DNA of 58,826 nt, counting the filler, from Dugesia japonica (Eukaryota): assembly GCA_001938525.1 (NCBI GenBank). It is 5 parts of 5 records of this genome, joined end to end, with 100 filler letters (N's around TTAATTAATTAA, not from the genome) between each part and the next. Parts side by side here need not be neighbours in the genome. Positions count along the whole stretch, not along the records: positions 12,055 to 25,499 come from MQRL01623684.1; 4 more parts are not named here. One strand, 5' to 3'. Numbering within the stretch: position 1 is the stretch's first letter; each line of letters opens with the position of its first letter. Below, piece by piece: positions 790 through 35,867 of the stretch. The notes under the pieces are model-generated. The model worked only from the letters and a program-made list of their open reading frames with translations. It made no database searches and was not told the DNA's origin. The translations under genes were made by a program, and so were the position numbers.

Positions 790-1590
790 AAAAAAATTAT
801 TTTTGAAATTTTTTGAGTTGATTTAAAAATATAAAAATCAATAAAATTTTAAATTAAAAGTATAAAAAAAATTAACCAATAAAATTTTAAATTAAAAGTA
901 TAAAAAAAAAATAACCAATAAAATTTCGATAAAATTTAAAGAATTGAGTAACANNNNNNNNNNNNNNNNNNNNNNNNNNNNNNNNNNNNNNNNNNNNNNN
1001 NNNTGATTCGTTTTTAGTGTAAATCAGACTTCAATTATTGAACACTCCAACCTCTAAGGGCGGCAGTAGTTCATATAGTTAAAATATTGCGACTTAAGTC
1101 TGTTTATAGAAATCTGTAGAAATATTGTTATATACCAAAATATTATCATTATTGAAAAGGTGTTTTATTTTATTTATATAGGAAAACACATATATTACAC
1201 TATTTATAATTTGTTTAAAATATCACAGTTATATAATATTGTAGTACACACATAATAAAATATCAAAATCCAAAATTTGATAAAGCATTTGTTATTAACG
1301 AACCATAAAATCTTTTGTTGAGTTATAATACCCAATATTAATTAAAAAAAATTTTTTCAAATTTTTTGAGTTTAGTTGATTTAAAAATAAAAGTTAAAAT
1401 CATTAAAATTAAAAGTAAAAAAAATAAACCAATTAAATTTCGATAAAATTTAAAGAAGTGAGTAACAAAGATCTATTGTATTGAATATCTCAAGAAGCCA
1501 ACATGTTCCTGAAGAAGACTATTGTCGAAAATTTGAACCTTTTTACAAATAAATTTTATTTTGATCGAAGCCTTTTCTTATTGTAATGAA
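790..1590 (+). repeat. Two diverged direct repeats about 514 bp apart; the second copy continues into a hammerhead motif (Penelope pLTR or retrozyme-like)
   Basis: The block ttttgag..ttgatttaaaaata...aaatttcgataaaatttaaagaa.tgagtaaca ends at 953 (then an N gap) and again at 1467. Confidence 0.6.
1505..1538 (+). ncRNA. Minimal type-I hammerhead ribozyme motif
   Basis: GTTC-CTGAAGA-A-GAC(TATT)GTC-GAAA-AT-TT-GAAC: stem I GTTC/GAAC, CUGANGA and GAAA boxes, 3-bp stem II, palindromic AATT in place of stem III. Confidence 0.65.
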
Positions 1591-4069: not shown

Positions 4070-4830
4070 GATCGAAATAAATAATTGTCTTATCAAACTC
4101 TCTTAATTTACGCNACCGAAAATTAACTGATTTTGGTCTCGTCAGATTGAGCACATATTGTGAGGACATTTAAATTGAAATTCGTGATAAATAAATATTA
4201 ATTTATCTTTTGAANNNNNNNNNNNNNNNNNNNNNNNNNNNNNNNNNNNNNNNNNNNNNNNNNNNNNNNNNNNNNNNNNNNNNNNNNNNNNNNNNNNNNN
4301 NNNNNNNNNNNNNNNNNNNNNNNNNNNNNNNNNNNNNNNNNNAATATTAATCAAATTTAAAAAATATAATAAATTAATAAATATCATTCAATAAAGTTAA
4401 GTTATTAATTAATTAAAGACAATCATATAATTTAAAATAAAAACTACTGTTGCAATTGCATGCAAAGCAATTTATATTAATTAAAAAGAAAATATTAATG
4501 TTTTTTTATTTGAGATATATTATATCCTATAAATGCATAATAAAACAAAACAATAGTCTATTGAACATTATAAAATCATACAAAACCTAGAAAATCCACA
4601 AACCCCTGGTAAAACGTAAATATTTCTCTAGTAACATTGATATTAATAATGCTTAGAGGGTATTAAAATTAATATTGTCCAGAAGATATTAGCGTTAGTA
4701 AAAAATTTTATAAAACAAAAAAATATATTTTCAAAAAAAAAATTTCGAAATAAAAAAGCTTCTAAAAAAATAATTAAAAAAAAAATTGTTCAAAAAAAAA
4801 CTCAAAATAAGAAAAAAAAAGTAAAACAAA

Positions 4831-5010
4831 AATGTAACTATAACAAGGAAAATGCAACAAGAAAACAACTATGACAAAGAAAATGCAACTTGAATTCAAC
4901 TATAACAAAGAAAATGCAACACTAATGTAACTATACCAAGGAAAATACAACACTAATGCAATTATAACAAAGAAAATGAAACACGAATTCAAGTAAACAA
5001 AGAATATGAG
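4831..5010. repeat. 31-bp minisatellite, about 6 copies
   Basis: The unit AACTATAACAAAGAAAATGCAACACTAATGT recurs at 4836, 4867, 4898, 4929, 4960 and 4991. Confidence 0.85.
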
Positions 5011-6951: not shown

Positions 6952-7493
6952 CTAAATAAAAAACTAAAGTAAAAGAAGAATATTAAAAATATACTAAATT
7001 TTCTTAAATACTAATAGATAACATTTTTTTAAAAACTATTTTAACCATTGATATGTATAATAACTGAATATTTAGAAAAACAAATTTTTTTTAAATGGAA
7101 AGATCATAAATCATTAAACCATCTTCTATTTACATAGATGGTTCAATATTTCGACTATTGTTCAATTCATTCTGGTTATAAACGTTTAAATAGAAACACA
7201 CTTTACATTAGTATGATTAAACGCATAATAATAACATTAAAATTTAAATTTATTGAACATATTCTCGGCTATTTGGTGGAAACCATAAAAATTGTTGAGG
7301 TTTTAGGCTTTTGATGTTGATTGATGTACAACACTTTGCTTTTATTATTATCTTCCATTCTCACACTTATTCGATTAGTCGCTTTCATATCCATCTGAGG
7401 GGCATACCTAAAGCCCACAAACATTTATAACACGTCTGTGTCATGACCCTTTTCTTAGAGTCCAGTGAAACTTTGTGGTCTTGACTACTTGGG

Positions 7494-7786
7494 TGTTAGA
7501 AAACATCAATCTTATTTACTCAGTAATAATATTTAGTTTCTTTTAATTTCAAGCTTATGTTTTAAAGACATTACCAGATAGAGCAATTTGTTTTTCCGAC
7601 ACTACAATATTGAAGAAAGAAATATTGATTACATTATTAAAATTGAATTTCAACTCATAACCCATCGTTTTAGTAATTTAAACACAAAAATAGTTTTATT
7701 ATTCATTAATTCAAATTGAATATTATTTTAATTCACCGTTATGTACTCGAATAATCATTATTTAATCAATAACACTATCCTTCACA
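7494..7786 (-). mobile_element. Probable LTR
   Basis: On the minus strand, a purine tract aaaggcagg is followed by TGTGAAGG, and the segment ends TCTAACA like other LTR ends in the window. Confidence 0.45.
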
Positions 7787-7949
7787 CCTGCCTTTGCAAA
7801 TTCACAAACATTCTAGTGACATACATATAAAAAAACAATAACGAGCAAAGAAAACAGCGATAATAGCAAAGTATTTTTATTTTGTTATTGATTCCACCTT
7901 GACGATGATGGGGGAACGCGATCCATACTTTGAGAAGCTCTGGTTTAGA

Positions 7950-10390
7950 TAATATATCTGCAATACCATGCTGAATTCCTTTACTATATTCTAATACCAT
8001 GTCTAGACTACTGAGTTAAATAATGCAGGTCTAGTATTGTGACGTAATTGATTTCTTCTTCATCATTATGAAAGTTAAAGCTTTAAAGTCTTTCATAAGA
8101 GTAAATCTTCTATCGTGCAAAGTTAAGTTTGAAATGCATGCAGAAACAAACATCCAATAACTTTTTCATGTATTGCAGTATCCTTTTTCATGACCAGTCA
8201 TTGGCCGTGATCATGGGCAACAACTCTTTCTCTTATTTCTTTATTTTTCTGTGACAATAATGCTTCAATTGTATCAAAAATATNNNNNNNNNNNNNTATA
8301 AATCCGTATATAACATAAAAACACAATATTGGCGCAGTCCTGGGAGCTTTCTTCAGACCCTCAAAAGTATCGCTCATTTTACCTGTCCATTCTAACTTCT
8401 TGTTGCTTGGTCCACTACACAAATATTCTAAGATCCTTGACTTTCTTGCATAGTTTTATTTAAACTTCTTGTAATAATTACAAATTCCTACGGATCTTCG
8501 CAACTCCTTCAGGCAGTTAGGTTTGCAAATGTTCTCATTATGCCTATTTTAGAAGAACCAGTTCTCGCATTATCTCTGTTAATTATATGCACAAAAAATT
8601 TGATTTCGCTTTGAAGAAGCTGACACTTTTCTGGATTAATTCTTTAACTAGCCTTCATTATTTCCTTTAATACTCTGTCAATTCATTCATATTGTCGCTT
8701 TTATTTTTCTTGTATATCCGAATGTCATCAAGATATACTATAGGTTCATTAATTATGTCTACTACTTTTGTCATCATCTCTCGAAATGTACCTGGTGCCG
8801 CTGAAATGCTGAATGGCACTCTATTAAAACAATATTGGCCGTTCTTTGTCAAAACACTATTTTCTTGAGAATTTTCTCTACCCAATAATGCGCATTTCCA
8901 AAATCAATTGAACTAAAATATCTTGCTCCATCTAACTTGTCCAGCATTTTATCGACGTTAGGTAAAGGAAAGTCTTATATTCGTTACTGTATGTAATTGC
9001 TTGGAATTTAAATGTATCCTTATGTTCGTCTTTTCCTTTTTTCAAACACAAATCAGCGGGGTATTCCATGGAGAGTTGCATTTCCGGATAATATTATTCT
9101 CAAACAAGTTTTAAATAGTTTCCAAGTTCATTGGTTGCCTATGCGGTTTTACATTGATTGGTTCACCATTTGTTATTATTTTGTGTTTTTTTCAGACGTG
9201 TACTTCCTATATCCCATTTATCCGCCATAAAAACATCTTCTTTAGTTCCGAGTATTTTCAATAACCGTAAAACGTCTTTAACCTTCAGAGTATTTAAAGC
9301 TCTTGTTAATTGCTCTCCATTTTTAATTTGCCTCCCAAATTTAAATTCAATGTTATAAATGTAATTTTCAATTTTGTATCAAATTTGCTATCCACTTTTG
9401 TACAAGCTTGTATCCCAAGACTTTTTCATATCTATTCCTCCAATCATATTTGGTATCACTNTTTTCGCAACTAAGAAAGTAACTTTGCAAACTTTACCAA
9501 TTGTGGCTCCAGTTCTAACTTTCCCAACAATCTCCAACATAACGCAATTTTTTATCACTCATTTCTAAATGCAGGTCTTGTAATATATTAAAACAACTCA
9601 AACTAAAAACGTTAGTTTGAGCCCCTCTATCTAATAAGCATTCAACTTTATTTCCCTAAATTGGTGCCATAACCTTGGCCTAACTTACAATTTATGGAAC
9701 GAAATATTTGTTCTCTGTTCTGCCTCAATTATTTCAACTCATTTCACTTTTCAATAATCCCGAAAATTTTCCCGCTTTAAAAACCTATAAACGTTTTCTT
9801 TACCTTTCACGATATAATTACACTTCTCATCCCCTAGAGGATAATCAACCAATTGATCTAACAATGAATGGCTTTAACCAACTCCTCTACTGGTGGAGCC
9901 TTGCCTTTTAAGTACTGCCTTTCAGAATCACTTGCATATACTTCCTCATATATATATCTTTTGTATTGACTACTTCATCTGCAATCGCATGTATTCGATT
10001 ATATCACTTTCCTGGCCTTCCAGCAGTCACAAATTTCTCAGTTATTCTTGGCATTTTCAAATTTGTGTAGCACTATTATGCTTTATGTTACAATTTTCAC
10101 ATCGTTTACACCTCACGTATTGACATAACTTTCTAATATGGCCAACTTTTTCACAACCAAAGCATTTTGTTGTTTTTTATCTGACAAACTCGACTTATAT
10201 GTCCTTTTTATGATAAGTTCAACCCTCTACTACTTTTTTCGTCGAACAATTTTTTTTAGTATGACCGATCTTTTGACATAAACAACATTCGATTTCCCTT
10301 CCTTTGTTCTACGCACAGTACGATTTAAAGATTTCTGATAATTTCGATTTATAACTCTAGCGGAATTTCTAACTGCATCAACTTGATCTC
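7950..10390 (-). mobile_element. Degenerate Ty3/Gypsy element (gag zinc knuckles, protease, RT, RNase H; integrase missing) inside the nuclear receptor intron
   Basis: ORF fragments GQYCFNRVPFSISAAPGTF...VYLDDI (RT), CSGPSNKKLEWT...FDTIEALLSQ...ERVVA (RNase H) and EYSKGIQHGIADILSKP. Colinear with the element at 27600-30000. Confidence 0.9.
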
Positions 10391-11545: not shown

Positions 11546-11954
11546 TTAGGTTGGTGGGAATGTTTCCGACGATTTTTTTTCAAAATTTAAAAATCAAAAT
11601 GAAAGTTCTATTTAAAGTTTATTCAATACATAATTTCCATCATTATTAATGATCTTCTCCCACATTTGTGGTAAGCACTCAATGTCATCTCTGAATAACA
11701 TTTCACTTTTTGATTCGAAGAAATCTTCCAATGCTTTTTCGATAGCACTCTTATCTTTGAATTTCCACCCTTTCAAGAAGTGCTGGATTGATCGAAATAA
11801 ATGGAAGTATGATGGAGCAATATCAGGATTTGTATAATAGGTATGGAAGGAGTCCCCAACCAAACTCCGTCACCTTCATCTAATAGATTTTGACCACATG
11901 CGGTCCGGCATTGACTCCATGAAGTATGATTTCCTTTCTATTTAGCAGCGCCGG
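11546..11954 (-). mobile_element. Mariner transposon 3' end (transposase C-terminus and TIR)
   Basis: NPDIAPSYFHLFRSIQHFLKG..F...LEDFFESK...LPQMWEKIINNDGNY resembles the mariner YSPDLAPSDYHLF motif. TA followed by a TTAGGTTGGT terminus at 11544-11555. Cut by the linker. Confidence 0.9.
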
Positions 11955-12054
11955 NNNNNNNNNNNNNNNNNNNNNNNNNNNNNNNNNNNNNNNNNNNNTT
12001 AATTAATTAANNNNNNNNNNNNNNNNNNNNNNNNNNNNNNNNNNNNNNNNNNNN
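11955..12054. other. Artificial assembly linker 44N-TTAATTAATTAA-44N
   Basis: Identical 100-bp spacer with stops in all six frames, occurring four times in the window. Confidence 0.95.
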
Positions 12055-12942
12055 TTTTTTTATCTGTTAAACTTTCTTTTGTAGGAATTTCTAGAATTTA
12101 AAAAGAATTTGTTTTAACATTAAAAATATAATCACTATAATTATATTTTATATATTGTTGAGACTTTTCATCAAAAGACTATTTTACTCGATGATATCTT
12201 TTTACTCAGGTTTCAAATTTAATTATTTTAAATTTTTATTCAACATTTGAACAGGCATCCTAATTTCTTTAGAAATAAAAGAATCTTTTAAATTTGGATT
12301 TTAAAAATAAGTTCTTGATATTTAGCTGTTATACAAATCTGTTCAGATTTTTTTAACAACTTTGGATCAAAGTTATTTGCACAATTAATGTAATCAACAG
12401 CATTTTCACACAAATCATTTTTACTCTCTGTAGTCAATTTTTTAGTAATAAAATAAGGTATTACATATATAACTATGTAGAAAATATTTTTGTAACAATA
12501 TAGGGAATTATGTAAGAAAATATTAAAGGAATATATAAATATGGAATTATACAAATAATTACACGAACAATAATTACTAAAAATACAATTATATTTTTTT
12601 GATATTCACATTTTTTNTTTAAATTATCAACATCTTTTATAAAACCATTTATTTCTTTTGTATTTATTTCTATAATCATTTTCTAAAGTAATTTTATTTG
12701 AGTAATTGTTTTGTTATTTGTTATCTTGTTCAGTTTTCTTTAAAGAAGTTAATCTCATTATTTTTTCTTCATCATATTCATTTGCTTTTTTTAATTCTTC
12801 TTTTAAAGTATCATTTTCAATTAATAAATCATAAATTGTATTTCCAACTAAATTTATAGTTTCTTCAAATAATTTAAATTTGGGATAAACTTCTTTTAAT
12901 ATTAAATTTTGTTCTTAAGATGATTGACTTTTTCCTGAAAGT

Positions 12943-12979
12943 CAATTCCTGACGAAGACAAGGTCGAAATATCGAATTG
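12943..12979 (+). ncRNA. Minimal type-I hammerhead ribozyme motif
   Basis: CAATTC-CTGACGA-A-GAC(AAG)GTC-GAAA-TA-TC-GAATTG: 6-bp stem I, both core boxes, stem II, palindromic ATAT in place of stem III, AUC cleavage triplet. Confidence 0.75.
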
Positions 12980-13398
12980 TTATCTAATATCAAAAATCAA
13001 TAAAAAAAAACAAAACTTTTGATCGAAACTTTTATTTTAAATCAATTCTGTAAAACGATCAATGGTTATGTCCAGCAATTATTCTCAAAATAATTGCAAT
13101 TGTTTTAGACTATTCATATATTTTGGATCTTTTTTTATATCTTCGATAAAGTCTTACATTTTATTTTGGAGCCACAAGCCAAAAACACAAGCTAAAACCA
13201 CAACCCTTAATTTTATTTTTATTTTCAAGTCTGTTGTACTGGTATTGATTACCCTTTTTTTCCTATGTAATCACTGATTGATTTCTGTTGTACTGGTATT
13301 CTCTTATCATTTGCACTATTTTGAAGCGTTACGGTCTCGGCTAAAATTTTACTAATCACTATTATAAAAAGATGCTCAGAAATTATAATCTCAATTAA

Positions 13399-13641
13399 CC
13401 TTTTGACTATCCTGTGCATCATATGTTGTACACAATTTGCCTAATTTTCATTAACAAGATTTAATGCTGATTAATAACGAGTAAAAATTACGCGAAGCAT
13501 ACGTAATGTACAGAACGTCTGACTAGTAAACAGTTTAAATATTGCTCTCTGCATCACATGTGGTTCACGTAATTTGAACAAAATTATTTTCGTGGACGTA
13601 CGGTGAAGAAAAAAATATTTACTATGTGGACAGGGAAAGGG
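13399..13641. mobile_element. Possible piggyBac-type non-autonomous element
   Basis: TTAA|CCTTTT...GGGAAAGGG|TTAG ends, with an internal repeated motif tgcatca(t/c)atgt.gt.cac near 13415 and 13550. Confidence 0.4.
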
Positions 13642-14388
13642 TTAGCAATATTTAATTAATTTGAAAATGAATTTTTATCTCTATTTTTATTATTAATTTT
13701 TGGCGACAGATTTGCTCCATTAATATGTAAAAACAATATAATATCAATCAATATTGTAAAAATAAATGTTTAAAAATAATTACATAAATTAAATTATAAT
13801 AAGCAGTTAAATTATTTATATGATTGGGTAAATAATTGTTTAAATTTATTAATATAAATTTAATGAGATCTGCTTAATCATTAGATTTTGTGTCAATGTT
13901 TAATTATTATAATAATACGGTATTATCAAACACGTATTACAGTTTGACCTAATTTTGTTATCTTCTTACGTCATAAAAATTATTAAACAATATAGCCAAT
14001 ATTAAAATATAGTTATACTTTTATAAATCTAATTTAATAAATAATTTCCTTTCATTTAATTATTAATATAATAATTTCGATTAGTTTTTAATTAATAGAA
14101 AAACTAATTTAATAATAAATTTAATTTTATTTTTATTGATAAAAATATTTTATAACAGCCAATAAAAATTATAATCAAATCGTTTAAATTAATTTTAAAT
14201 TTTCCGATTTAATAACTTAAAACGTTTCAGTTGTTTGATAAAATAAATCAAATTTGTTACAATTCAAAAAGAAAATTTAATAGCAATTTTATTACTAGAA
14301 AATCATTTTATTAATTGAATTTAATTTTAAATTTGAAATCTTAGAATAGTTGTGGAATTTTAAATTTTAAATCATAATTGTTTGAGTG

Positions 14389-14700
14389 AAGGCTTGCCAA
14401 CTTTCCCGTTTTTGCTAGAGTTTCTCGGAACTGGATTCCATCTCCTATTTCGTCGTTATCTTTGACTCAGGAGATATAATCCTCTCGTCTTTCCGTTTTG
14501 ACAAGATAATTTTGTTTATATCTTTTTGGTATTAGTCATTATATAGTTAAAATCACACACATCATCATCATCATGTGTACGTTGTAACAGTGTCAACAAA
14601 ACAATGAAAACCACTTTTTATATTTGTTAAGCGTTATACATTATAATGGTTACAATTTTATAATCTCCCGGGTTTGAGGTTGTAAGTGTTGGCAACCCTA
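14389..14700. mobile_element. hAT-superfamily MITE (312 bp)
   Basis: TIRs AAGGCTTGCCAAC / GTTGGCAACCCTA (11 of 13 match), with a perfect 8-bp TSD TTTGAGTG at 14381-14388 and 14701-14708. Confidence 0.9.
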
Positions 14701-16090: not shown

Positions 16091-16779
16091 AACATACTGC
16101 AATCACACTCCAATCACACGAAAATCTCAATTTGCTTTTCAAAACCCACTCACAACAGTAATCAATAAACAGTAGTTATGAGTAAGTTTTTATACACTTT
16201 CGTAAAACTTTTCACTAGTAACAATTAACGATAATTATTTTAGGAATTCTCGCTTACAGGAAAAGAACACGAAGCTAAAAGAGTGAGATTTAGCATTATC
16301 TCAGTCAAATCAGATGATAGCCGACATAATCAAGTCGTACGCTAACCGAGAAGGCGCGTTAATAGCAACCATCTGAACTCTAAGTCAAACATCCACGAGG
16401 AACCGAAGAAGAAAGAACCGGAAAAGATAACAATAGATGATGTTCAATGAAGAAGAACATATTGATATAAAAAAAGCTTTCCATATATGTTCATATGTTT
16501 TTGATTTGATAATAAGATAAGTAGGTGAAATTCAGCGAAAAACTGAAGTCAAAAAGAAATAAAAAAAATATAAACAGGATACTGCATAGTCCTGCATGGG
16601 CTCGTGGTAGATGGAACAATGCACGATGCATTGTCAAATTTCTGTTGGCTTCGGGTAACTACTAATAGGAGATATCAAGATGGTCTAAATCAGAAGAATC
16701 ACCATATGAAGAAGATCATCGAGAGAAGGTGTCCAAAATAAAGAAACTTACATATAAATCATCGAAGCACAACACATTG

Positions 16780-18099
16780 AAAATGTCAAAATATTTATTC
16801 AAGAAGGTTTTATTGATTTTATCAAATTAAAAGAGAAAAAGGAAGAAGCATTGATCGCTGTTATATTGACCAAATTTGCTAAAGATGGACTTGACATAAG
16901 AAATACAAGAGAGCAATTATATGAAAATAATACGAATGTCATTAAAGAAAATGAGTTTGCACGTTTTGCATTGTCTAAATTTGTTTGCTTCCATTCATGG
17001 CAACATTATTCTAAAATATTCAATAACATCTTAATTTTTTCTACGATCTGTAAATCGTTGGCAATTTCTTATGTCAATTTGAAAAATATTTTCAAAGGTC
17101 GCAGCTCTACAAAGTAGTCACGAAAGCAACAGCAGTTAAATTAGTAGTAACACAAATAATTGAAACCTGTGAAGCTTTATGAAAAATCTCGAAAAATTCC
17201 ACTAACAAAGTGACAATGTTTATAGCTATAAATTTATTGAAACAAGTTAATTTTGAATTATTGCTATGCTTAGAATATTGGATCTTGATTCTCAAGTTAA
17301 TAAATTTCTTCAATGTCAATGTATGTGTTTATCTTGAGTTTTGATGATTTAAAAAGGTTTATTGGAAACCTTAACTGATATTCAACAAAAAAAAAGAATT
17401 AAATTTTTAAAACAGCAGAGGAAAAAGCAAAGACTTTTAACCTATTACCAAATACCATAGATAAATCGCTTAAGAAAGCCATATCCGAAATATATCAAAC
17501 CAGATATTATCTACAAAAAACAAGTATTTTTTTTGTGAAATTGAAAATGTATTTCAGAGATGACAGCAAAATCTAAATTTTAGAGTATCAGAAATTTTAT
17601 TTATAAATGAAAACTTCAAATTTGTAGTCTCTCTGCTGCTGATTCTAAAGACGTAAATATAGAAGGCATATAAATGGTCAAATATTTTGCTCTGAAATTT
17701 GCAATTTTAAATATCTCACAGCAGAACATTTTAAACAAAATTCTTTCATTTATTTACAATTTTTGACATGAAACAATCATATCTAAATGTTGAAATAATA
17801 TTAAGAATATTTCTAGCATTAATTGCTACATCGGCTCTTTGCGAGAGAGCATTAAGAAAAATTATATTTTTCAAAAATTATTTGAGATCGACAATCCGTC
17901 AAGAAAAACTAATTAATTTAAGTGATTTATCAATAGAATTTGATTTCACTAAGTTTTAACGATGTTCTTGATAAATATTCCAGCGGAAAAGCATGAAAAG
18001 TAACGTAATAATATAGTGCTTACTTTATTTGTCATAAATATATTTTTGTTCCTATATTTTCAGTTTGTCATGGGCGCCGAATATTCTAGTCCGGGGTTG
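16780..18099 (+). mobile_element. Degenerate hAT transposase (ZMYM1-like type) with 3' terminus
   Basis: DGLDIRNTREQLYENNTNV and the dimerisation domain YLNVEIILRIFLALIATSALCERALRK..KNYLRSTIRQEKL..LSIE. GC-rich end ctagtccggggttg. Confidence 0.8.
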
Positions 18100-19483
18100 T
18101 ATATACACCTATAAAACAGTGCAGACCGCTTATAGTTTTTGGGACTAAAAATTTTCTTCGTTATGAAGGAAATTTTATATATAATATAAGCCATTAAAAT
18201 ATCGACAAAAATTAAAGATGAAGAATTTATTCATCTTTCTTTAACGATTTAAATCCAAAGTCAAGTAACGTGATTTGAATTGAGTTTGATCGAAGTATTT
18301 TATATTCAAGACTATCAAGACATAAATCTGCTGTTTAACATTTTATCATAGTGAGTTATTTTACATGAATTCTTTTATTTGAAATGTTGATATGAATTAA
18401 TTTGTTTGAATATTATGAATATTCATCTTTTTAATTTTTTTTATGAAAATCAACACAACCTGTTTTTGAATAAATTTATTATGGAGACTTTTGACATTGT
18501 TAATATATCTACAGATAATTTTATGATTTAAAATGTGTTTCGTGTTTTTAAAACTGTTTACAGCTTTTTGCATCAATTTTTTATCACAAAAGAAGCATCC
18601 ATATATACAACATTAAACGAATAACTACGGCCATCAAAAAATACAAATGTAAGCCATCTGATCCTTGACATATTTACAGCATATTCATATTTGTAAAATT
18701 AAATAATTTATTGTTAAGCAAATTATTAATCTGTTGTTTCGTAGAAATCACTTAATTCAATGTGATATCATTTGAATTCGATTAAGCATTTTATGTTATC
18801 AATCAATAATCGCATTCAGCTATACAATATATGATTGGATAATCACCTTACCTTGTTTGTGTGCACATTTGACTCGATATTTTTTACAGGAATGTTACAG
18901 AAATATTTTTGATCTATATAAATTAACTTTGACGCTTTAGTTTTCATATCAATTACAAAATAAACAAGTGACAGTACCAATTGATTTATTAATAGTTTAT
19001 TTTATTGTTTCAAAATATTGCTCACATAGTCAACATTACTTTTGAGCTGAATTGATTACTATTAAAATAATTGCTGATTCGTAAATTCATTTTATATTTA
19101 ATGGGTAGAGAACTTACCATATACACTTAGATATCGATTTGTGTCTAAGATAGTATTTTTAAAAACAGATTTTTTTTTTATTTTTAAAACGGAATTTATT
19201 AAAATCAAAAGTATATTTAAATTTGTATTAGGAAAATAATTTATAAAATAAATTACTAAAATTCTAAGATTTTTAAATAATATAAAATTAAATGAATGAA
19301 ATAAGTTTATATTATTGTTTTAAAATTAGATATTAATAAAATTTAAGAATTTAAATATTTAGTATTTTCCTTTTTTAAATATGAATTTTTAAATTTTAAG
19401 TTTATAATTTTTTTTAATAAATCTTGTAATGAATCCGAGTTCTGATGTTGATAATCCGATGAGTTCTCAAAACTCATCTAACA

Positions 19484-19496
19484 TGGTGGCAGTGGT
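19484..19496 (+). promoter_or_regulatory. Primer-binding site (tRNA-Leu type)
   Basis: TGGTGGCAGTGGT directly after the LTR-terminal ACA; one difference from the copy at 31684. Confidence 0.8.
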
Positions 19497-20491
19497 AAAC
19501 ACCGATGCAATCACAGAAAGATTGTTGCAAAACATATTTTGCAGAGGCGATGATCTAGAGAAGTTTATTAAACGGTGTGAAATATACTTGGAGGCGAAGA
19601 AAATCGTTATTAAGGAGCGTTGGATAACATGCATGCTTCATGAAGATTTAATGGAAGTATATGTGAAAAAATTGAAGAAAGCGGATGGATATCAAGAGAG
19701 ATTGCAATTAGCTTTTGAGAGCAAGAGAGACGTAATAAAAGATTTACAGAATCTTGTAACCTATCGTCGTGGTGGTGAAGAACTTGAGGTGTTCTTTAAA
19801 AAAGATGAAGACTTGGTCGATAAATTCTTAGTAAATGAAGAGTTGATGAAAGAAAAACTCTTGTCAAAAATGCTAATAACTTGTGAAGATAGTAAAAAAG
19901 CAGAAGAATAGATTATCAAGCGAAAATTGGAAAAAGTAGAAGATATAAAGAAACGCAATCATTAGTTAAAAAAATAGAAAAAAGAGAGTCTTTTAACGGA
20001 GTAAAGAGTTACGTGGATGTAACACGTGGAGAACGTTCCAAAGAGAGGAGAAAAAATATCGAGAGAGTTACAAAAAGAACAGAACCACAGTGTTGGACAT
20101 GCTTAAGTTATGGGCATGCAAAAAGAGAGTGTCCAAATAATTCTCATGTGGAATGTTGGACTTGTCACAAGAAAGGGCATTTAAGTAAAAATTTCCCAGA
20201 CAAGAAATCACCAAAATGTAATGGGTGTAGTAAGATTGGTCATATCAGAAGGATGTGCACAGAAATTGTATGTGGTAGATGTAAAATACCGGATCACAGA
20301 GCCGAAGAATGTTTTTCAAACATAAGTAAACCTAGATTAGAAGAGAGAAGAGACAATTCTAAAAACGGACAACAAACAAAAGATTGTAGTCGGAACAAAC
20401 AAATTCATGCCATTCGAGAAGAATTTGATAATGAGAATGGAGAGAGATTTTCTGAGAACATAATAGAAAATGAAGATACAAGAAGAGAATA

Positions 20492-20567
20492 CCCAAAAGA
20501 CATGGCTTCATCAGTAGACGAGTTGGTCGGAGCCATTCATTAAACGAGTTAACCTTTGAATATCCTC
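20492..20567 (+). promoter_or_regulatory. Candidate -1 ribosomal frameshift signal (slippery heptamer plus stem-loop or pseudoknot)
   Basis: In-phase C CCA AAA, 5-nt spacer, stem GGCTTCATCA / TGGT(C)GGAGCC. The gag stop follows, and the -1 frame continues ELTFEYPQEAEKWDE. Confidence 0.6.
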
Positions 20568-21999
20568 AAGAGGCTGAGAAATGGGATGAGACGAGTAATG
20601 TGAGAGAAAATGCTTAAAGATTCCTAAAAAAGAAAGTTTCTATGATGTGGAAATTAACAAAGCAGAAGTGATAGAAACAATTTAAGAGAGAAATTTTGTA
20701 TTATAAAATTTAAGGGAGACCTAGCATTTCAGTGATGATCAAGGGTGAACAGTTTGATTGTCTGTTAGATACAGGAGCAAGAATAAATGTAATGATTATG
20801 AAAGGATTTAGTTAACTCGGAGAAACAATGTTAGAAAAAAAGCGAGTACAACGTGTGAAAGTTGTACTTTCAGAGTTGTGCAAGGAAGTAACATTTATAA
20901 TAGTAAAGAAATTAATACCAGATTTAATTGGTGGAGTGGAATTTCATAAATTTTTTGGGTATCATCTTTAAAAAAAGTGCAGGGTAGACATCAATAATCA
21001 CCGAGAAAAATTTGTAAGAAAGATACAGACGGGTGAACGATTGAGACATGCAATGAAGATTCTATAAATTAACAAAGATCACAGATTGACTGCAAATTTT
21101 CAGAATAATGAGGATGTATTCATGGCATTTAAATAGTACATTGGATGCACACATTTAATGAAGCATCGAATAATCACTAAAAGAGGTCCAATCAACATAA
21201 AACCGTATCGTCAGCCAATGAATCTGGAAGAGAAGATTGAAGAGGCCATCAAGAATATGTATGATAACAGTATCATCCGGAAGTGTAATTCGCAATGAAA
21301 TACGGCATTAGTCTGCGTTTTGAAAAAGGTAAAAAAGGATATACGATATGCTTAGACTTTAGACAGCTCAATGCTATAACAGAAAGACAAGTTTTTCCTT
21401 TGCCAAATGTGGAAAAAATGCTAGATGCTTTGGAAGGTATGCCGTATTTTAGCTCAAAAGACTTGAAAAATGCTTGAAGTCTTAGTGAAAGTTGAAACAA
21501 GAAAAATGAGCCAAGATCGTTATGTAGGACCCTATAAGATCAAGAGGGAATTTCACGACAGACGCTACATTCTGGAAGATACAAAAGGAAAAAGTCTTGA
21601 AATAAACTTAAAGAAGATCAAAATATTTCTTTGAATCTATATTGAATCTATTTTAGCTAGAAATTTAAAATGTTTACCGAATTATTTGTAATTTTTTTGA
21701 AAATTTTATTAACTTATTGCTGAAGAAAAAAAAATTTTCAAAATTTTTTGCCAAAAAATTTTGCTATTATTGATATTTTATTCAGTAGTGTATTGAAAAA
21801 AATCAAAACATTTTAGTGTTAATTTTTATAAGAATTTTATAAAGTTTACCGAATTATTTTTCAATATAATCTGTGTGCTTTTTCTATTTTAATGAGTGAT
21901 TTTAATTGTTTACCGAATTCTTTTTCAATAAAATCGGCGTGATTTTTCTATTTTAATAAGGGATTTTAATCTTTATATTGACCTAAACATTGATACATG

Positions 22000-23955
22000 T
22001 CTCACTGAAAGCGAAGAGCCTATTCTACGTTATGGTCTTTTTGTAGAAAATGATTACCCAATCTTTGCCTTAATACATGTCCTTCACTGATAATTATTGC
22101 TGTGATTGCAGCTGGTTCATTCTCCTCAGCAAGATCGATATCAGTGTCGATATCAGTACTATTTGTATCATTAGCAATGTGTATTAAATCATCCTCATTT
22201 AATTCTTCATCCACCAACAGTTCAACAATATCTGCTTCAGCTAGGTCATCAAAACTTTCTTCTCCAATTGTATGCGACAACTCAACTATCTGTGCATACT
22301 CATGTTCTATTGATGAAGCAGAAGTATTACCTTCAACAACTTGTGGCTATATATTCTTCCAACGGGCATTGAGTGTTGAATGTTTAATGTCGCAGTATGA
22401 CAATCTTAGATTGTAAAACTTTTCCAGGCATCCATTATGTTCAAAGATTCATCTTTTTCTGTTTCTTCTAAAATATACTTGAAAGTGTGTTTTATGTACA
22501 GTGCCTTAAAAGTTTAAATTATGCCTTAATCTAATGGCTGTATTAAAGAAGTGGTATTCTTTGGTAGAAATACAACTTGAATATTTTTATATTGTAAATC
22601 TTGAGGATGGCTCAGTGCGTTGTCAATTATCAGAAGCACTTTAAAAGGCAAACATTTTTTATTTAAATATCTTTTGGCATCAGGTACAAAACATTTATGA
22701 AACCATTCATCAAATACTATTGCAGTAACTCATGCCTTCTTATTGACCATCCCATAAACGGGAAGATTGTTAATATTAATTCCTTTAAATGCATGTGGTA
22801 TCTTTGCCTTATTGATGGCCAATGGTTTCATTAAGTAATCGCCTGAAGCGTTGCTGCAAAACAGAATTGTTATACGGTCTTTTGCTGCTTTATGGCCACT
22901 AGCTGTTTTGTAAGATTTAGCCACATAAGTCCTTCTCGGCATTATTTTCCAAAAAAGACCGGACTCGTCAGCATTGAACACCTGATCTGGAGTGTATGAA
23001 TTAGTGGCAATAATTTCAGCAAGCTTTGCTGGGTATTCTTTTGCTGCATTTATATCTTCAGATGATAGTTCGCCTTTCAATTTCAAATTATGCAAAGAAT
23101 GCCTTTTTTAAATCTTTAGAATCAACCGTGGCTTGCTGAAAATGACGGCTTTTGGTTTTCAGCTAAAGACGTAGATGGTAACTGATTTTTAACTTTTGAA
23201 TATATCCACAACACTTTATTTGTGATTGCGTTTGTATCGATTGGTATCCGCTTTTGTGTTTGGTCTTCAATCTATATTATTAATGCCTTTTCCATAGTTT
23301 CAATGACAGTATCCCTTTCATATGATGTTGTGCTGTAACTTGTACCACTATCAGATGCTACACTTTTTCTAATTGAGCTTTCATTTTTTTTGATAGTTCT
23401 TATTGTCGCTTCATTCATTGAATATGATTTAGCCACCTCTGTTACTCTTTCTCCTTTACTCAGCTGATCTAAAATTTTGATTTTGGTTTCTTTTTCTTTT
23501 TTCTTGTTTGCTTTTATTTTCTTTTGACATCACGAAGCCTTTAAAAAGCTTAAACTGAATTATAAAATTGCTACAAAAATTATGAATTATTACTTACGAT
23601 AGCTTAATATTTTTAAAAATTTATTATTATAAAAANNNNAATAATCATCAAAATCATCTACTAAATACATAAAATTTAACTCACTAAACCAAGAACAAGT
23701 TCAATCTCTTAATAATTTATGTAGAATGGATGAAATCCCTTTTTTAGTTTTTAATGCCAGTGTTAACAACAAATAACAGTATGTATGAACAAATTTACTG
23801 TTAAAAGTAAAAACTATTAGCATTATATTGTGTATACATTTTGGAAATTTTTTCTTCTGTTTTTTATCCAAATAAAACTTTTTAATCGTTTTTTTAAAAC
23901 CGTGTAAAAGCGAAATCGTGTAAAAAAGGTACCGTGTAAATCGGAGGATAGGTTT
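22000..23955 (-). mobile_element. Tigger/pogo DNA transposon, degenerate transposase with 5' terminal region
   Basis: DQVFNADESGLFWKIMPRRTY...KAAKDRITILFCSNASG (DDE_1 domain), [11 protein letters not shown], and upstream HTH remnants. Terminal cgtgtaaa repeats at 23900-23950. Confidence 0.9.
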
Positions 23956-24092: not shown

Positions 24093-25097
24093 TTATTTAA
24101 TATGTAAAAGTTTCAACAAACTGTCCAACATTTCACGCCGAGTGATAAAAAATAGAACGGGATCTCCTAGTGCATGTAGAAAAAATAAATAATAAACCGA
24201 ATACGATGGAAAATTAATCCATTTTAAATTATACAATATAGCTGGTAAATATGAAATAATCATTAATAAATTCGCCAAAAAAAGTATTTTAACAAATTTG
24301 ATCGAACCGATTCTCCGATTAGTAGGTATAAATTTTAATTTTGTTAAAGTCGATTCTTTTCTCAATTCTAGTGTACCGGAATATTTTCTTAATTTTGAAA
24401 TTTCTGAATTCGATTTATTATCCAATTCTGTGACTTTTACTGATTTAAAATCTCTACTAGAAATAATCGAATCTTTGTGATGGAATATTTGCCTACGACA
24501 TAATAGTGTAAACAACACACAATAAATAAGGAAACTTAAGATCATTAAAAATGCACCGAATCTTCCAATGAACAGTTTTGCATATTTATCAATCAATTTT
24601 TGTTTATCGCATTCAATATAATGAATACTTAGAAAAATGAATCTTACCAAATAAAACAATCCAGTTAAAATAGAAAATACTTTGAAACCTTTGAAAACTC
24701 GATCGATCCTCCAGAAATTACTTAATGGCAGTAAAAATGCTAATAATCGATCGATTGCTATCAATACTAAAATGATCATTTGCGATGAAATTGCATAATC
24801 TCGAATTCCTAAATATCCATCAAGTAGAATCGAAGTATCTGTGTCTTTTGAGAATTTTTTGATTAAAATATTCGGTAGAATTAAAATAGAAATAATCAGA
24901 TCAAGAAAAATGAGAACTTGAAATAATTTATGAAATGATCTTTTCTCATTAATAAATTTGTCCTTTTTAATAACAACATAAAGTAAAATTGAATTCAATA
25001 AAACAGAAATCATAAACATTATTGTATAGATTGGAAAAAATCCATTATCGATATCTTTTTTCTCAATGTCATGATATCGACAAGATTCATTATACAT
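24093..25097 (-). CDS. Intronless rhodopsin-like (class A) GPCR, 334 aa, orphan
   Basis: Intact ORF with about 7 hydrophobic segments: TM1 LN, TM2 LIFLD, TM3 IAIDRL (DRY-like), TM6 SYLP, TM7 DPVLF (NPxxY-like). Confidence 0.85.
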   Translation of the reverse strand: MYNESCRYHDIEKKDIDNGFFPIYTIMFMISVLLNSILLYVVIKKDKFINEKRSFHKLFQVLIFLDLIISILILPNILIKKFSKDTDTSILLDGYLGIRDYAISSQMIILVLIAIDRLLAFLLPLSNFWRIDRVFKGFKVFSILTGLFYLVRFIFLSIHYIECDKQKLIDKYAKLFIGRFGAFLMILSFLIYCVLFTLLCRRQIFHHKDSIISSRDFKSVKVTELDNKSNSEISKLRKYSGTLELRKESTLTKLKFIPTNRRIGSIKFVKILFLANLLMIISYLPAILYNLKWINFPSYSVYYLFFLHALGDPVLFFITRREMLDSLLKLLHIK

Positions 25098-25369
25098 TCT
25101 GATTAATAATTAGGCATCCGGTTTGTGCTGTTTAAAATGAGAATTTATGACAAAGTTCAATAACACATAGACAGATTTGATTGTTTCGATTATTTTAATT
25201 GCATTTCTAAAATATATATGTAGGGAATAATAAAAAATGATTTTTCCAATTATAAAAAAATTTCTAATCTCGATTATGAAAGTCGTGTGATTAATTGAAA
25301 ACACGATTTTTTGACAACTAGATAAGCATTAATTTTAATAGTAATTAAGTTAGAAAATATTGTTTTAAC

Positions 25370-25499: not shown

Positions 25500-25599
25500 N
25501 NNNNNNNNNNNNNNNNNNNNNNNNNNNNNNNNNNNNNNNNNNNTTAATTAATTAANNNNNNNNNNNNNNNNNNNNNNNNNNNNNNNNNNNNNNNNNNNN
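25500..25599. other. Artificial assembly linker
   Basis: N-run, TTAATTAATTAA, N-run. Confidence 0.95.
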
Positions 25600-27485: not shown

Positions 27486-27599
27486 TGTCCTTTCTCATGA
27501 CTCGTAATTACGTGTGACCCATATGCAATTACTCTTTCTTGCCCATTGTTGCTCTTTTGAAATAGTACTGCCTCAATCGTATCGAAAATCGCATCCGTG

Positions 27600-30500
27600 T
27601 CCAAATCGAAATTATCAGAAATTAGTAAATAATACAGTGAATAGACATGTAGAGCAAAGAAAAGAAAAACAAAATATCGAATGTTGGTCATGTCATAAGA
27701 TCGGTCATACTAAAGCAAATTGTTCGATTAAACAAGTGGTAGAGTGTTAGACTTGTCATAAAACAGGACATATAAGTCTAGATTGTCCAAATAAAAAATC
27801 AACAAAATGTTTTGGACGTGGAAAGGTTGGTCATATTAGAAGGTTATTTCACGAAGTGAGGTGTAAACGATGTGGTAATGGTGGACATAGTGCTACACAA
27901 ATTTAAAAATGAAAAGAAAAGGTGAGAAATTAATGACTGCAGAAAGATCAAGAAACCGATATAATTAAGTACATGCGATTGCAGATGAAGACGTTAGTAC
28001 AAACGATAGATATGAAGAAGTATATGCAAGTGATTTTGAAAGGCAGCACTCGAAAGGCCAGGCTCTTCAGTAGAGGAGTTTGTTGGAGCCATCCATTGCT
28101 CAATGAAGTTAGTAATTATCCTCAAGAAGTCAAAAAGTGGGATGATATAGGAAAGGTTTTGTGGATGATAGAAAAGTAGAATGGGTTGGAACNGTTGAAG
28201 CAGAAAAGAAAACAAAAATTTTGTACCATAAATTGCAAGGCAGACCAAGTGTTTCAGTATCAATTCAAGGAAAATAATGTAAAATGTCTATTAGGTGCAG
28301 GGGCTTGAATTAACGTGATGAGTTTGAGTTGTTTTAATGAATTACGAGAAGTAAGTTTAGAAATGAGTGATGAAATATTGCGTGGTTCAAATAATAGTAC
28401 ACTTGAAATTGTTGGGAAAGTTAGAACCGGAGTGATAATTGATGAAGTTTGCAAAGAGATTACTTTCTTAGTTTCTGAAAGAGTAACACCAGATCTGATA
28501 GGAGGAATAGATATGCAGAAGATTTTTTAATACCAGCTCATGCGAAATTTCAATAGCAAAACGGATGAAAAAGGTGAAAATTACATTAGGAATATTGAAG
28601 CTAAATGCGGTAGACAAATTAAAAAAAGAGAGCGAATAAATATTTTGAAGATTAAAGAGGATCAACGGTTATTGAAAATAGTTGAAAGTAAAAAAGATGA
28701 TTTTATGGCAGATAAATGGGATGTAGGACGCACACATCTGATAAGACACAAAAAAATCACAATTGGTGAATCAATTAATGTAAAACCGCATAGACAACCA
28801 ATGAACTTAGAATCTAAAATTAAAGAAGCTATCCAAAACCTTTTCGAGAATAATATTATCTAAAAATGCAACTCTCAATTGAATACCTCACTGATCAGTT
28901 TTGTTGAAAAAAGAAAGGAAAGATATAAGAATATGTTTGAATTTCAGACAATTAAATGCAGTAACGAAAAGACAAGCCTTTCTGATGTCTTATGTCGATG
29001 AAATGCTGGAAAAGTTAGAAGGAGTCAAATATTTCAGTTCAATAGATTTAGGAAATGCATACTATTAGGTAGAGCTTGAGGAAGAATTTCAAGAAAAAAC
29101 GGCATTTTTAATAGAATGCCATTTGGCATCGCAGTGGCACCAGGGATATTTTAAGAGATGATGAAAAAAGTGGTAGGCGGAATCAATGTAGTCATGGTTT
29201 ATCTTGATGGCATACTGATATTTACAAACAATAAAGATCAACACTATAAAATAATCAAAAGAGTATTGACGGATTTAATGTAAGCTGGTCTAAGAATTAA
29301 TCCAAAAAAGTGTCAGATTCGTCAAAGCGAAATCAAGTTTCTTTGACAGATAATTAGCAAAGATAGTGTCAGAACTGATCCGTCTAAAATAGAAGCTATA
29401 AAATACATTTGCAAACCTATCTATGTGAAGAAGTTATGAAGTTTCTTAGGAATATGTAATTATTACAGAAGGTTTATAGAAAACTTCGCAAGAAAATCAA
29501 AGATCTTAGACCAGTTGTGTAGCGGGCCAAGCAACAAAAAATTAGAATGGACAGATGAAATAAACGATACTTTTGAGGGTCTGAAAAAATATCTAATGAC
29601 TGCATCAATATTGTGTTTTCCAGACATAGACAAAGCATTTATATTAGATACAGATGCCAGTTTTCATACGATTGGAGCAGTATTGTCACAGAGAAATAAG
29701 AAAGGAAGAGAAAGAGTTGTTGCCTATGAATCACACTCAATGACGGGTCATAAAAAGGATATTCTATCACACGAAAGCAATTATTGGTTGTTTATTATTT
29801 CTGCATTAAGTTCAGACACCATTTGTACGGTAGAAAATTTACTCTTAGAACAACCTTAAATCATGAAGCTCTAATCTTTATGATGATGACGAAGAAACCA
29901 ATTACATCGCAATTTCAGATATGGATTAATCATCTGAGTAGTTTAGACATGGNNNNNNNNNNNNNNNNNNNNNNNNNACATGCTAATGCAAATATGTTAT
30001 CTAGACCAAGATGCAAGGTATGTGTACAATGTCAAATGTCACATGAAGATGCCAAAAAAGGAAATATTAAAACGAGAATATTAAACATGATTGAAAAGAA
30101 AAAAGAAGAGCAATTAAACATTTCTGAGTACACAGATTTAATCAAGAAAATAAAAATTTCGGAGCACAAAATACACAAAACATTTGAAGAAATACATAAA
30201 TTATTTTGTCATGTACAAGTTGTGAATGTGTACGAATACATGAGATACAAACACATTGCAAAGAATTTGTGGAGTTCAATACAGAAAATAGTTCGAAGTT
30301 GTGAAATTTGTCAGAAGATCAAGGTAGTGATGACAGCAACTAAAGAAAAGACAAAGAGATTAGAAGCTACAAATTTGTTTGAATTTATATTCACAGATAT
30401 ATGTAGGCCAATGCGGGAAACAAATGGACGAAAAAATACATTATTGGAATAATCGACCAGTACAGTATATACCTGGTTTTTATACTACTATCTGGTTCTT

Positions 30501-31283
30501 GCCTAGACAAAACGAGGAAACAATACGAAATGCAATTTTCGAAAAATGGATATTGAGATTTGTATATCCAAGAGAAAAAAGACTTGATTGTGGAAAAGCT
30601 TTTGAATCCAAAGTTATGAGAGAGTTTGCACTGAAGTTAGCTACTAAACTTTGCTTTTCGAGTCCCTGTCATTAAATGCAAACAGACAGTTCAAGACAAT
30701 TCGAGATTTGATTAATACAACAGGAAAGAAAGACAACAGATTGGGCAGATCTTTTACCGGAAATAGAATTTAGAATGAAATCAACAAAGCAAAATACGAC
30801 TGGAGTGAGCCCTGCTGAGATCGTATTTGGAAAGGAGATTAGCAGAGTATGAGTCAGATGTTTCCGGTAAAACTAAAGAAAACACTTCAGATGAGAATAC
30901 AAATAGAGAATTCAAAGTGGGCGATTTTGTACTCATTAAGATAAAAACAAGAAATAAAAGTCAAAACAGATTTGAAGGATCTTATCGAATAATTGAGAGA
31001 ATTCAAGAAAGACGGTATGCGGTACAAGGAGAAAATGGGCAGCTATTAGAAAGAAATTGGGAAAAAACTTAGGAAGTTTCTAAAGAAAGGAAATATGAGG
31101 AAATAATTACTTTTTTAATATTTTTAGCCAATAGAAATTGAGTTAAATCAGTACTAAGTTTCAATCAGTTCTTTTCAATGATAATTATTTATAAATAGCA
31201 GAGTGTAGAAGTAAAATTAATGATATCTCAAAATATTAGTTCTGATTTGGAAAATGAATTACCAATTGAAGATTTAGCTAACA
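27600..31283 (+). mobile_element. 5'-truncated Ty3/Gypsy element: gag knuckles, protease, RT, RNase H, integrase, PPT and 3' LTR (31094-31283)
   Basis: CWSCHKIGHTKANC, FILDTDASFHTIGAVLSQ, HKLFCH..CEIC, FEFIFTDI, WILRF..P...DCGKAFES, FKVGDFVLIK..RFEGSY. PPT aaagaaaggaaa at 31082-31093; LTR ends CTAACA. Confidence 0.92.
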
Positions 31284-34200: not shown

Positions 34201-35867
34201 TTTATTTTGGACACGGGTGCGAGTTTCGATACGATTGGCAACTATCTCAAAAGGGCAACAATGGGCAAGAAAGAGTAATTCCTTATGGGTCACACTCAAT
34301 GACGAGTCATGAGAAAGGACATTGTACTACTAGGAAAGAATTGCTCGCAATTTACTACTTTTGTATTCATTTCATACATTACTTATATGGGAAGAGATTT
34401 ATTCTTAGAACCGACCATAAACCTATCACTTTTATGCTAAATACCAAGAAGCTGATTACATCAAAGTTTCAAATCTGGACTAATTATTTGAGCAGTTTAG
34501 ATATAAAATTATAATATAGAAAAGGATCGCTTCATATAAATGCGGATATGTTGTCAAAGAATGAATGTGGTACATATGCACAATGTATAATGTCACATTA
34601 AGATCCCAAAAGTGGAAAATTAAAAACAAGGATGTTAAATACAGTAGATATTCAAGAAAAACAAGGTAATTTTTGTAAGAATAGGAAGGAAAATGGTTAC
34701 GTGATGATAAAGTACAAGAGGCTATAATGAGGAGACACCATCTTTTATGTCATGCTGGAGCAGAAAAGGTAGCAGCGTATATTAAGCATAAATATAACGC
34801 GAAACGTTTGTGGAGCAAAGTACAAGAGGTTGTCCGAAGTTTAAAACATGCTAGAAAGCTAATGTGTTGACAAAAAAACGAAAGAAGAAACGAAAAAGAC
34901 GCACACAGTCGAAATATTTAAACTGTTATTTATAGATGTGTGTATACCACTGCCAAAGACAAGTGATCGAAAAAAATATATTCTCAGTATAATATCGAAT
35001 GCAGTTAGTATGTAGCCTTGATAACAATGATAAGATAGGATGAAGATTCCATAAGGAAAGCAATGTTGCAGAAGTGGATATTAGAGTTCGGGTGTCCAAG
35101 AGAAATTTGAATTGATTGTAGACGAAAATTTGGTCTAAATCAGTAAACTAATACTCTAAGGTTTTTGAGTTCATATTATCATAACACAAATGGGCAAATC
35201 AAAAGGCAGTTTAGAACTATGCGGGATATGATTAATGCAACACTTAAAGAAAGGAATAGTTTAGACTGGGTGGATGTATTGCTAGAGATAGAATTTATCT
35301 TAAACGCTACAAAACAGGAAACTATCAAAAAAAGCCCAGTTGAAATCGTATTTGGGAGGAGAAACAGCAGAGAAAAATGGTATGAAACAAATACTAAAAA
35401 AAGAGGAAATATGAACCAAAAGACAATTCGAGGTCGGTGATGAGGTCTTAGTGGAAGCTAAAACAAGAACCAAGATCGTTATGAAGGACCCAATAAGATC
35501 AAAAGGAAAGTTCACGACAGACATTACATTCTGGAAGATATAAACGGAAAAAGTCTTGAAAAAAACGTAGAGAAGATCATAGAATTTCTTAGAAAGTAGG
35601 ATATAAGATAAATAAATAATTATAGGATAGTTTTTTAAAAAAGATATTAAAACCTTTTATTTTTGAAAACGGAATTTATTAAAATCAAAAGTATATATTT
35701 AAAATTGTATCAAGAAAATAATTTATAACATAAATTTCTAAAATTTAAAGATTTTTAAAATATGAAATTAAATGAATAAAATGTGTTTTTTTGTAGTGAT
35801 TTTTTTATAATCAAATTATTTTTTATATAGAATAAAATATAAAATTAAATATTTAGTATTTTCCGTT
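31298..35867 (+). mobile_element. Near full-length degenerate Ty3/Gypsy element with both LTRs (31298-31683; 35602-35867 truncated)
   Basis: Both LTRs start TATAAGATA and share about 250 bp. 5' LTR ends CCTTACA, followed by PBS, gag, protease, RT (VYLDNI), RNase H (FILDTGAS, KELLAI, LRTDHK), integrase and PPT agaaagtagga at 35591-35601. Confidence 0.92.
31684..31696 (+). promoter_or_regulatory. Primer-binding site complementary to the 3' end of tRNA-Leu (AAG/TAG type)
   Basis: TGGTGGCAGCGGT is the reverse complement of the animal tRNA-Leu 3' end ACCGCTGCCA-CCA and lies directly after the LTR-terminal CA. Confidence 0.85.

Follow-up and report, generated by a model that had tools for sequence, protein, structure and literature searches.

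A 37-base motif resembling a minimal hammerhead ribozyme (min-HHR) begins at position 12943 of a 58,826-nucleotide stretch of Dugesia japonica DNA (assembly GCA_001938525.1), and raises the question of what kind of element, if any, brought it there. That stretch, analysed over its whole length, is referred to here as the window. Min-HHRs have been described on the ends of Penelope-like elements (PLEs) in some 40 animal species, including a planarian, and are defined by the core CUGANGA, an extra base before stem II, a G10.1-C11.1 pair and a palindrome at 15.2-16.2 (PMC4209133). They are described in the same source as mostly single dispersed copies, the monomers of which were uncleaved and the dimers of which cleaved little (Cervera & De la Pena 2014).

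Two minimal hammerhead motifs and the tails behind them

The window, which is approximately 75% AT, was scanned on both strands with a hammerhead descriptor. Exactly two matches were obtained, the motifs at 12943 and 1505, and their elements are as follows.

12943-12979, plus strand: minimal type-I hammerhead, copy 1 (descriptor scan), with a predicted cut after C12973
12943-12948 and 12974-12979: stem I of copy 1, CAATTC/GAATTG
12949-12955: core of copy 1, CTGACGA, followed by an extra A at 12956
12957-12959 and 12963-12965: stem II of copy 1, GAC/GTC, with loop AAG
12966-12969: GAAA of copy 1
12969-12972: palindrome of copy 1, ATAT, followed by C12973 as the H position
1505-1538, plus strand: minimal type-I hammerhead, copy 2 (descriptor scan)
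1505-1508 and 1535-1538: stem I of copy 2, GTTC/GAAC
Within copy 2: core CTGAAGA, extra A1516, stem II with its loop, GAC-TATT-GTC, and GAAA
1530-1533: palindrome of copy 2, AATT, followed by T1534 (U in RNA) as the H position

The linear layouts are CAATTC-CTGACGA-A-GAC-AAG-GTC-GAAA-TA-TC-GAATTG for copy 1 and GTTC-CTGAAGA-A-GAC-TATT-GTC-GAAA-AT-TT-GAAC for copy 2. Both copies contain the min-HHR core (CUGANGA...GAAA...UH) closed by stem I, the extra base between 9 and 10.1, the G10.1-C11.1 pair (G12957-C12965 and G1517-C1526, respectively), and a palindromic centre in place of helix III. They differ at N7, in loop II, in the outer part of stem I, which is still paired, and in the tetramer, which is still palindromic. 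When the window was shuffled 600 times in 1-kb blocks with dinucleotides preserved, the strict descriptor matched 0.003 times on average: two shuffles gave one match each, and none gave two. Looser descriptors gave means of 0.03 to 0.05. Both motifs are real, and well above chance. The preliminary description had placed an intact-core minimal hammerhead at 12943 and a second at 1505-1538, with the same layout, a different stem I that still pairs and a different self-complementary tetramer. Every element was found where it had been reported when the sequence was re-read, with two matches against 0.003 expected.

No hammerhead family match was obtained for either copy in an Rfam scan (E values up to 5). 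This result is no evidence against a hammerhead, because the Rfam hammerhead models need helix III. The motifs resemble the published min-HHRs in being type I without helix III, in the extra base, the G10.1-C11.1 pair, the palindrome and the AU-rich flanks, and in their massive dispersal as single motifs (PMC4209133). Centres of the types UA-UC and AU-UU are depicted for Nematostella and Crassostrea in Figure S3 of that source, and a stem II of 3 bp, at the short end of the published range, is given there for C. briggsae. The min-HHR reported there for Schmidtea mediterranea differs in sequence, with a stem II of 5 bp, and belongs to a different family.

An identical 11-base sequence follows each of the two motifs, and occurs nowhere else in the window.

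13017-13029, plus strand: conserved motif TTTTGATCGAA(A/G)C (exact 11-mer), also present in the loose-end consensus lines of the family
1559-1571, plus strand: second copy of this motif, an exact 11-mer match behind copy 2

A comparable G/C-containing 11-mer in common with the tail was found in only 4 of 414 other window pieces, so the two tails are likely to derive from common descent, as judged from sequence. Aligned over their whole length, the tails score no better than the AT-rich background: 90 of 412 window pieces, and 387 of 2000 shuffles, score equally high. AATAAA carries little weight, since it is present in 137 of 919 60-base window pieces; at that background frequency it was rejected as a poly(A) signal. 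Thus, of the common 3' tail proposed in the preliminary description, the 11-mer stands, while the tails as wholes lie at background and AATAAA is uninformative. Copy 2 likely represents a diverged sister family.

In both copies the reading frame of the core also contains a TTT-GAT-CGA motif (69 and 51 bases), and both frames through it stop within approximately 30 codons. A search with 13041-13160 for the first codons of a PLE protein in the unit described below gave two candidates, none at E values up to 10, and no protein match was obtained for the 3' frame of that unit.

Four identical joins, each consisting of 44 N, TTAATTAATTAA and 44 N (11955-12054, 25500-25599, 36219-36318 and 47418-47517), represent assembly linkers, and distances and orientation across them are therefore unreliable. 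The first separates the two hammerhead copies. A number of other features were observed in the window. Decayed Gypsy-like LTR retrotransposon copies, 66-91% alike, are situated at 1-670, 8200-10300 (minus strand), 19400-21500, 27500-30800 and 31600-35440, and carry pieces of zinc-knuckle, RT/RNase H and integrase (integrase identified by Pfam, the others by eye). Broken pieces of a protein-primed family B DNA polymerase, as in Polinton/Maverick elements, occur at 36704-38222 and 43427-44532 (Pfam DNA_pol_B_2 for 37605-38219). DNA-transposon fragments lie at 11612-11869 and 22020-23529 (both minus strand), 16758-17117 and 54084-54437; among them are some with mariner-like and pogo/Tigger-like motifs, and the hAT-like label derives from weak Pfam matches. 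A single 487-aa frame at 49873-51336 (minus strand) contains an EMSY-like ENT domain (E value 1.5e-18) and has one close unnamed relative. An intronless GPCR-like frame is present at 24093-25109 (minus strand), the only named relative of which is S. mediterranea GCR158 (36% identity); this likeness points to a likely planarian host, probably of another species. Tandem arrays with periods of approximately 31, 19-23 and 20-21 bases were found at 4774-4990, 35900-36210 and 47740-49300, and a histone-type stem-loop at 39205-39249 scores below the Rfam cut-off.

The repeat unit, its ends and the RNA reads over it

Of 24 sequencing runs listed, 9 contained part of 12620-14600; no RNA run was listed among these 9, which is no evidence either way. 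Four data sets, namely two contig sets (X1 and X2) and two raw RNA runs (X10 and X11), were compared with 12100-14600. Loose ends were situated before 12938 in 296 (X1) and 287 (X2) contig records and in 197 reads (X11), and behind 13103 in 91, 104 and 290, respectively. Beyond these points the agreement of the flank consensus is only 0.45-0.53, indicating unrelated flanks. Because the loose ends are sharp and the flanks unrelated, the interval 12939-13103 constitutes a dispersed repeat, fixed at both ends. The preliminary description had given the extent as 12943-13040; the hammerhead does lie inside the repeat, but the unit is longer. Its features are listed below.

12939-13103, plus strand: dispersed repeat unit of 165 bp with two fixed ends (loose ends and depth), likely a PLE pseudo-LTR (pLTR) stub
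12922-12947, plus strand: 11-bp fold-back across the 5' edge of the unit, formed by an inverted copy of the unit's first bases and the spacer TTTTCCTGA (12930-12938)
13075-13097, plus strand: 9-bp hairpin, its end 6 bases short of the fixed 3' end, a candidate reverse-transcription start

Summed contig depth reaches approximately 0.85-1.15 million in the two bins over 12940-13107, compared with 33-94 in the bin next to the unit and 16-33 in unique-looking bins. Summed depth is not copy number, and its division by unique-contig depth yields bounds of approximately 3,000 and 100,000, so that the number of copies can be given only as likely in the thousands, a rough estimate. The copy at 12939-13103 is, in its middle, a minority variant, since most family copies depart from it behind 12977/12978, on the GAATTG side of stem I, and the depth at 12995 is approximately 1% of that at 13043. 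As a consequence of this departure, the sixth stem I pair may be specific to copy 1. Nearly all copies have A at 13075, which would break the outermost pair of the hairpin unless 13097 changes; no such change was seen.

Joints to the opposite strand, from 12938 to 13008, 13039 and 13052, represent head-to-head pairs in other copies. A head-to-head inverted copy and a palindrome at the 5' junction are thus both present, the latter as the fold-back at 12922-12947. The spacer, TTTTCCTG, was also observed on the other strand in a three-read loose end from X10, where it adjoins the start of an inverted unit with U at N7 of its core. In X2, a single contig connects 12916 with 13112 and lacks the unit; it would represent the flanking repeat without the insertion. 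Neither a dominant tail of 30-40 bases behind 13103 in the loose-end data nor a clean target-site duplication (8-10 bp) at the locus was found, features that known elements may have or lack (PMC3846280). Each window copy stands alone, not in tandem, and no head-to-tail joint was present among the 15 of 80 joints listed.

No further decayed copies were detected in the window by blastn, and with a covariance model of the two copies and 11 foreign loci the next match in the window scored 12.5 bits versus 44. Five GTCGAAA-like sites, read by eye as possible decayed copies, were unconvincing. No TATA box was observed upstream of the window copies, and a bacterial promoter scan was set aside as irrelevant for animal DNA. 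The unit is situated inside moderately repeated sequence (12100-12930 and 13110-13600; summed depth from hundreds to approximately 3,000), which has lysine/glutamate-rich open frames on the minus strand at 12714-12914 with no significant Pfam family. Another repeat starts at 14452-14600, with a summed depth of 7,000-9,000 and RNA reads mainly from one strand.

The lowest-energy fold of the isolated 37-mer consists of stems I and II (-4.6 kcal/mol), and is no better than those of shuffled sequences (z -0.21). Once the flanks belonging to the unit are included, the prediction favours a competing helix at 12957-12981, and the hammerhead pairs have a probability of 0.0. For copy 2 the predicted probability is approximately 0.97 locally, and that of stem I is 0.15-0.23 in longer context. 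Positive duplex energies (+1.6 and +2.2) were calculated for the 4-base palindromes on their own. A dimer between the two window copies was rejected, because ATAT is not complementary to AATT.

RNA reads from the unit were obtained on both strands. Unit depth in X11, of which approximately 25% was read, was 101-194 on one strand and 165-289 on the other, with near-zero depth in the bin next to the unit and 94% of matched reads running on into unlike sequence; X10, of which 6% was read, gave 42 reads. Over both runs, 94-95% of the reads continue into unlike sequence, and flank coverage is approximately zero (bin 13108-13191). No pile-up of RNA ends was seen at 12974 or elsewhere in these fragmented cDNA/oligo-dT libraries, which are a weak test of the cut. 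These data fit reads from other copies of the unit inside host transcripts, and do not demonstrate transcription of the locus at 12939-13103. The lone copy there is likely an inert remnant, and is predicted to misfold in its context.

Look-alike loci in metagenomes

The core together with the tail gave no matches in metagenomes. The core with a GAC/GTC stem II was found at 39 loci, all from other organisms. A palindromic tetramer is present in 27 of these and a stem I of at least 3 bp in 23, neither of which the search pattern required. It is apparent that the loci fall into a few related groups, and that they have no tail in common with the window family. RT- or GIY-YIG-like frames, scored as long-frame matches to ten query frames taken from the same loci, accompany 12 of the 39, a count that includes self-matches and reduces to approximately four groups, with one locus on the opposite strand. 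A motif in L009, L013 and L024, read by eye and without a Pfam match, is presumably GIY-YIG-like. In L009 and L013, 40 bases separate the end of the endonuclease-like frame from the core, and the homology extends no further than +121. The RT label derives from sub-cut-off Pfam RVT_1 matches in L018, L020, L026 and L032, together with the DKG motif, seen by eye in L012 and L018 and named in PMC8557442.

In 11 of the 39 loci (approximately five groups), a TATAWA begins 34-40 bases ahead of the core, versus a background of 0.8%; a start site would accordingly be expected to fall a few bases before stem I. Homology begins at -7, -7 and -8 before the core in three look-alike pairs, and at -10 in the unit described here. 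It ends at approximately +130 in L028/L037; the present unit spans -10 to +154. In an alignment (A2) of the two copies with 11 palindromic plus-strand loci picked by hand from the 39 foreign ones, paired changes were observed in stem I and the tetramer (covariation 0.453 versus 0.119 in shuffled alignments), a value that is illustrative only because the loci were hand-selected.

Seven of the loci (L012, L018, L020, L026, L032, L008 and L005) contain tandem two-frame elements behind a minimal hammerhead, with a first frame having a weak GDSL-esterase match, then an RT frame, and no evident endonuclease. The 5' edge of the unit in L005 abuts TTAGGG-type repeats. Head-to-head fold-back minimal hammerheads with the same layout as the window-family joints were observed in other organisms (L034:3017-3176 and L033). 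A viral scan returned two loci lacking a closing stem I, which were read as chance.

Origin of the unit

The reading favoured here, and considered somewhat more probable than all others together, is that the 165-base dispersed repeat with its minimal hammerhead is a PLE pLTR that was inserted as a short stub. On balance, the template would have been the front of a full PLE RNA. The 5' end of that RNA would lie at about 12939, approximately 10 bases ahead of the ribozyme core. AT-rich DNA would be nicked by the PLE protein, and reverse transcription would begin inside the RNA, approximately 150 bases past the core and near the hairpin at 13075-13097. Copying would then run back to the 5' end of the RNA, producing a stub with both ends fixed, and would sometimes add a short inverted second copy of the unit. 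Since the 35 bases upstream of the predicted cut are still present in the stub, the RNA that was copied had likely not been cut. The hammerhead of the parent element may cut slowly, and only as a dimer via the 4-base palindrome and/or with the PLE protein.

In favour of this reading are the agreement of the motif with the min-HHR consensus at every point, the sharp ends, unrelated flanks and opposite-strand joints, the X2 contig lacking the unit, and the look-alike loci with their RT- or GIY-YIG-like frames, TATAWA positions and homology starts, although those loci come from other organisms. Several published systems also bear on it. In EN+ PLEs, inverted pLTRs arranged head-to-head around a palindrome at the 5' end are described, as are solo pLTRs of 181-218 bp and a tail (PMC3846280, PMC8557442). 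The present unit resembles the EN+ Penelope elements described there in its length near 180-220 bp, its inverted copy, its 5'-junction palindrome and its solo units, but differs from them in having no internal TATA box, clear target-site duplication, tail or attached ORF. For Poseidon of Anolis (PAc), an internal RT start, protein-assisted cleavage and the use of uncut RNA have been reported (PMC11167929, Frangieh et al. 2024). The likeness to PAc extends to a hammerhead near the front of the RNA, a stem-loop at the internal RT start, AT-rich targets, and uncut RNA as template with no RNA-seq ends at the cut site, as that report gives them. For PAc, however, there are measurements of the mechanism, and stem II is where the ORF begins, whereas the window family is known from sequence and has no lasting frame starting in either copy. 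Not all PLEs have a start 10 bases ahead of the core: the D. virilis Penelope has its start site at position 371 and its hammerhead at 496 (PMC2377424, PMC4209133); that element has an internal promoter (PMC2377424, Schostak et al. 2008).

The link to an autonomous PLE is one of resemblance, because the window contains no PLE RT or endonuclease and the 3' frame matches no protein. The best tblastn E value in the window, with the ten query frames from the metagenome loci, was 0.36, in agreement with the earlier statement that no Penelope RT or GIY-YIG sequence is visible there. This differs from the min-HHRs of PLEs in PMC4209133, in that no PLE frame is linked to the window family. The fixed ends would fit a dedicated non-autonomous master copy equally well.

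The strongest alternative, possible although less probable than the stub, is a SINE-like, PLE-derived non-autonomous element with an internal promoter, whose short masters are copied in trans by the PLE protein. It would account for both fixed ends and for the unrelated flanks of most copies, and the core and tail motif recur in a second unit that has diverged; moreover, pLTR sequences suffice for trans mobilisation in Adineta (PMC3846280, Arkhipova et al. 2013). On the other hand, no unit-length transcript was seen among the RNA reads, which come from both strands, mostly run on and show no end pile-up (a weak test), and ordinary PLE insertions, as described in the sources cited above, are marked by head-to-head joints. 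The fuller form of this alternative is a little more doubtful still. The unit would be a free-living 165-base 'hammerhead SINE' with its own promoter, copied in trans, whose ends are the transcription start and the priming site and in which TTTTGATCGAA is the recognition signal. If it were true, the thousands of copies would constitute a natural mutant library for the start of PLE copying and for the role of the ribozyme.

An origin as an animal non-LTR retrozyme, in which tandem hammerhead repeats give circular RNA, is very unlikely. Such retrozymes are reported to be 51-972 bp in length and to occur as tandem units and also as monomers, and are proposed to derive from pLTRs; cleavage was observed in one of nine dimers (Li, Clavereau & Pollet 2026, bioRxiv 10.64898/2026.07.22.740005). 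The window family is similarly short, non-coding, pLTR-related in appearance and equipped with a type-I hammerhead, and its length lies within that range. Retrozymes are, however, defined by tandem units, whereas this family consists of dispersed single or head-to-head copies: both window copies are single, the listed joints include none head-to-tail, and the loose-end consensus behind 13103 is unlike the unit start. The ribozyme is, in addition, minimal and not canonical. Rare tandems may occur elsewhere in the genome.

It is more improbable still that the host has retained the ribozyme of this locus for transcript processing. The core is intact in both copies, but flank coverage is near zero in both RNA runs, the hammerhead fold is predicted to be absent in context, and there is no compatible partner, the two tetramers being unable to pair and an assembly join lying between the copies. 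Equally improbable, and already largely refuted, is a resemblance due to chance, in an AT-rich repeat that has nothing to do with retroelements. Such a reading could appeal to the shortness of the motif and to shuffled sequences that fold as well as it does, but not to the rate of matches in shuffles or to copy differences confined to N7, the loop, the paired outer stem I and the palindromic tetramer.

With the pLTR stub as the favoured origin, part of the original proposal of a dispersed, possibly undescribed, ribozyme-bearing retroelement family can be retained. The family is dispersed and of high copy number, and has a min-HHR of the PLE type; its kind, though, is well described. No title or abstract opening in the openly accessible literature covered concerns this repeat family. 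It may be a new family of a known kind, which may lack a name. Its interest lies in scale and precision: copies estimated roughly in the thousands, both ends fixed, and the ribozyme whole upstream of the cut. A question left open for PLEs in PMC8557442 and PMC11167929 is whether selection acts on the core of the ribozyme; this, and whether PLE stubs arise by copying the front of RNA that was not cut, could be tested with a genome assembly alone.
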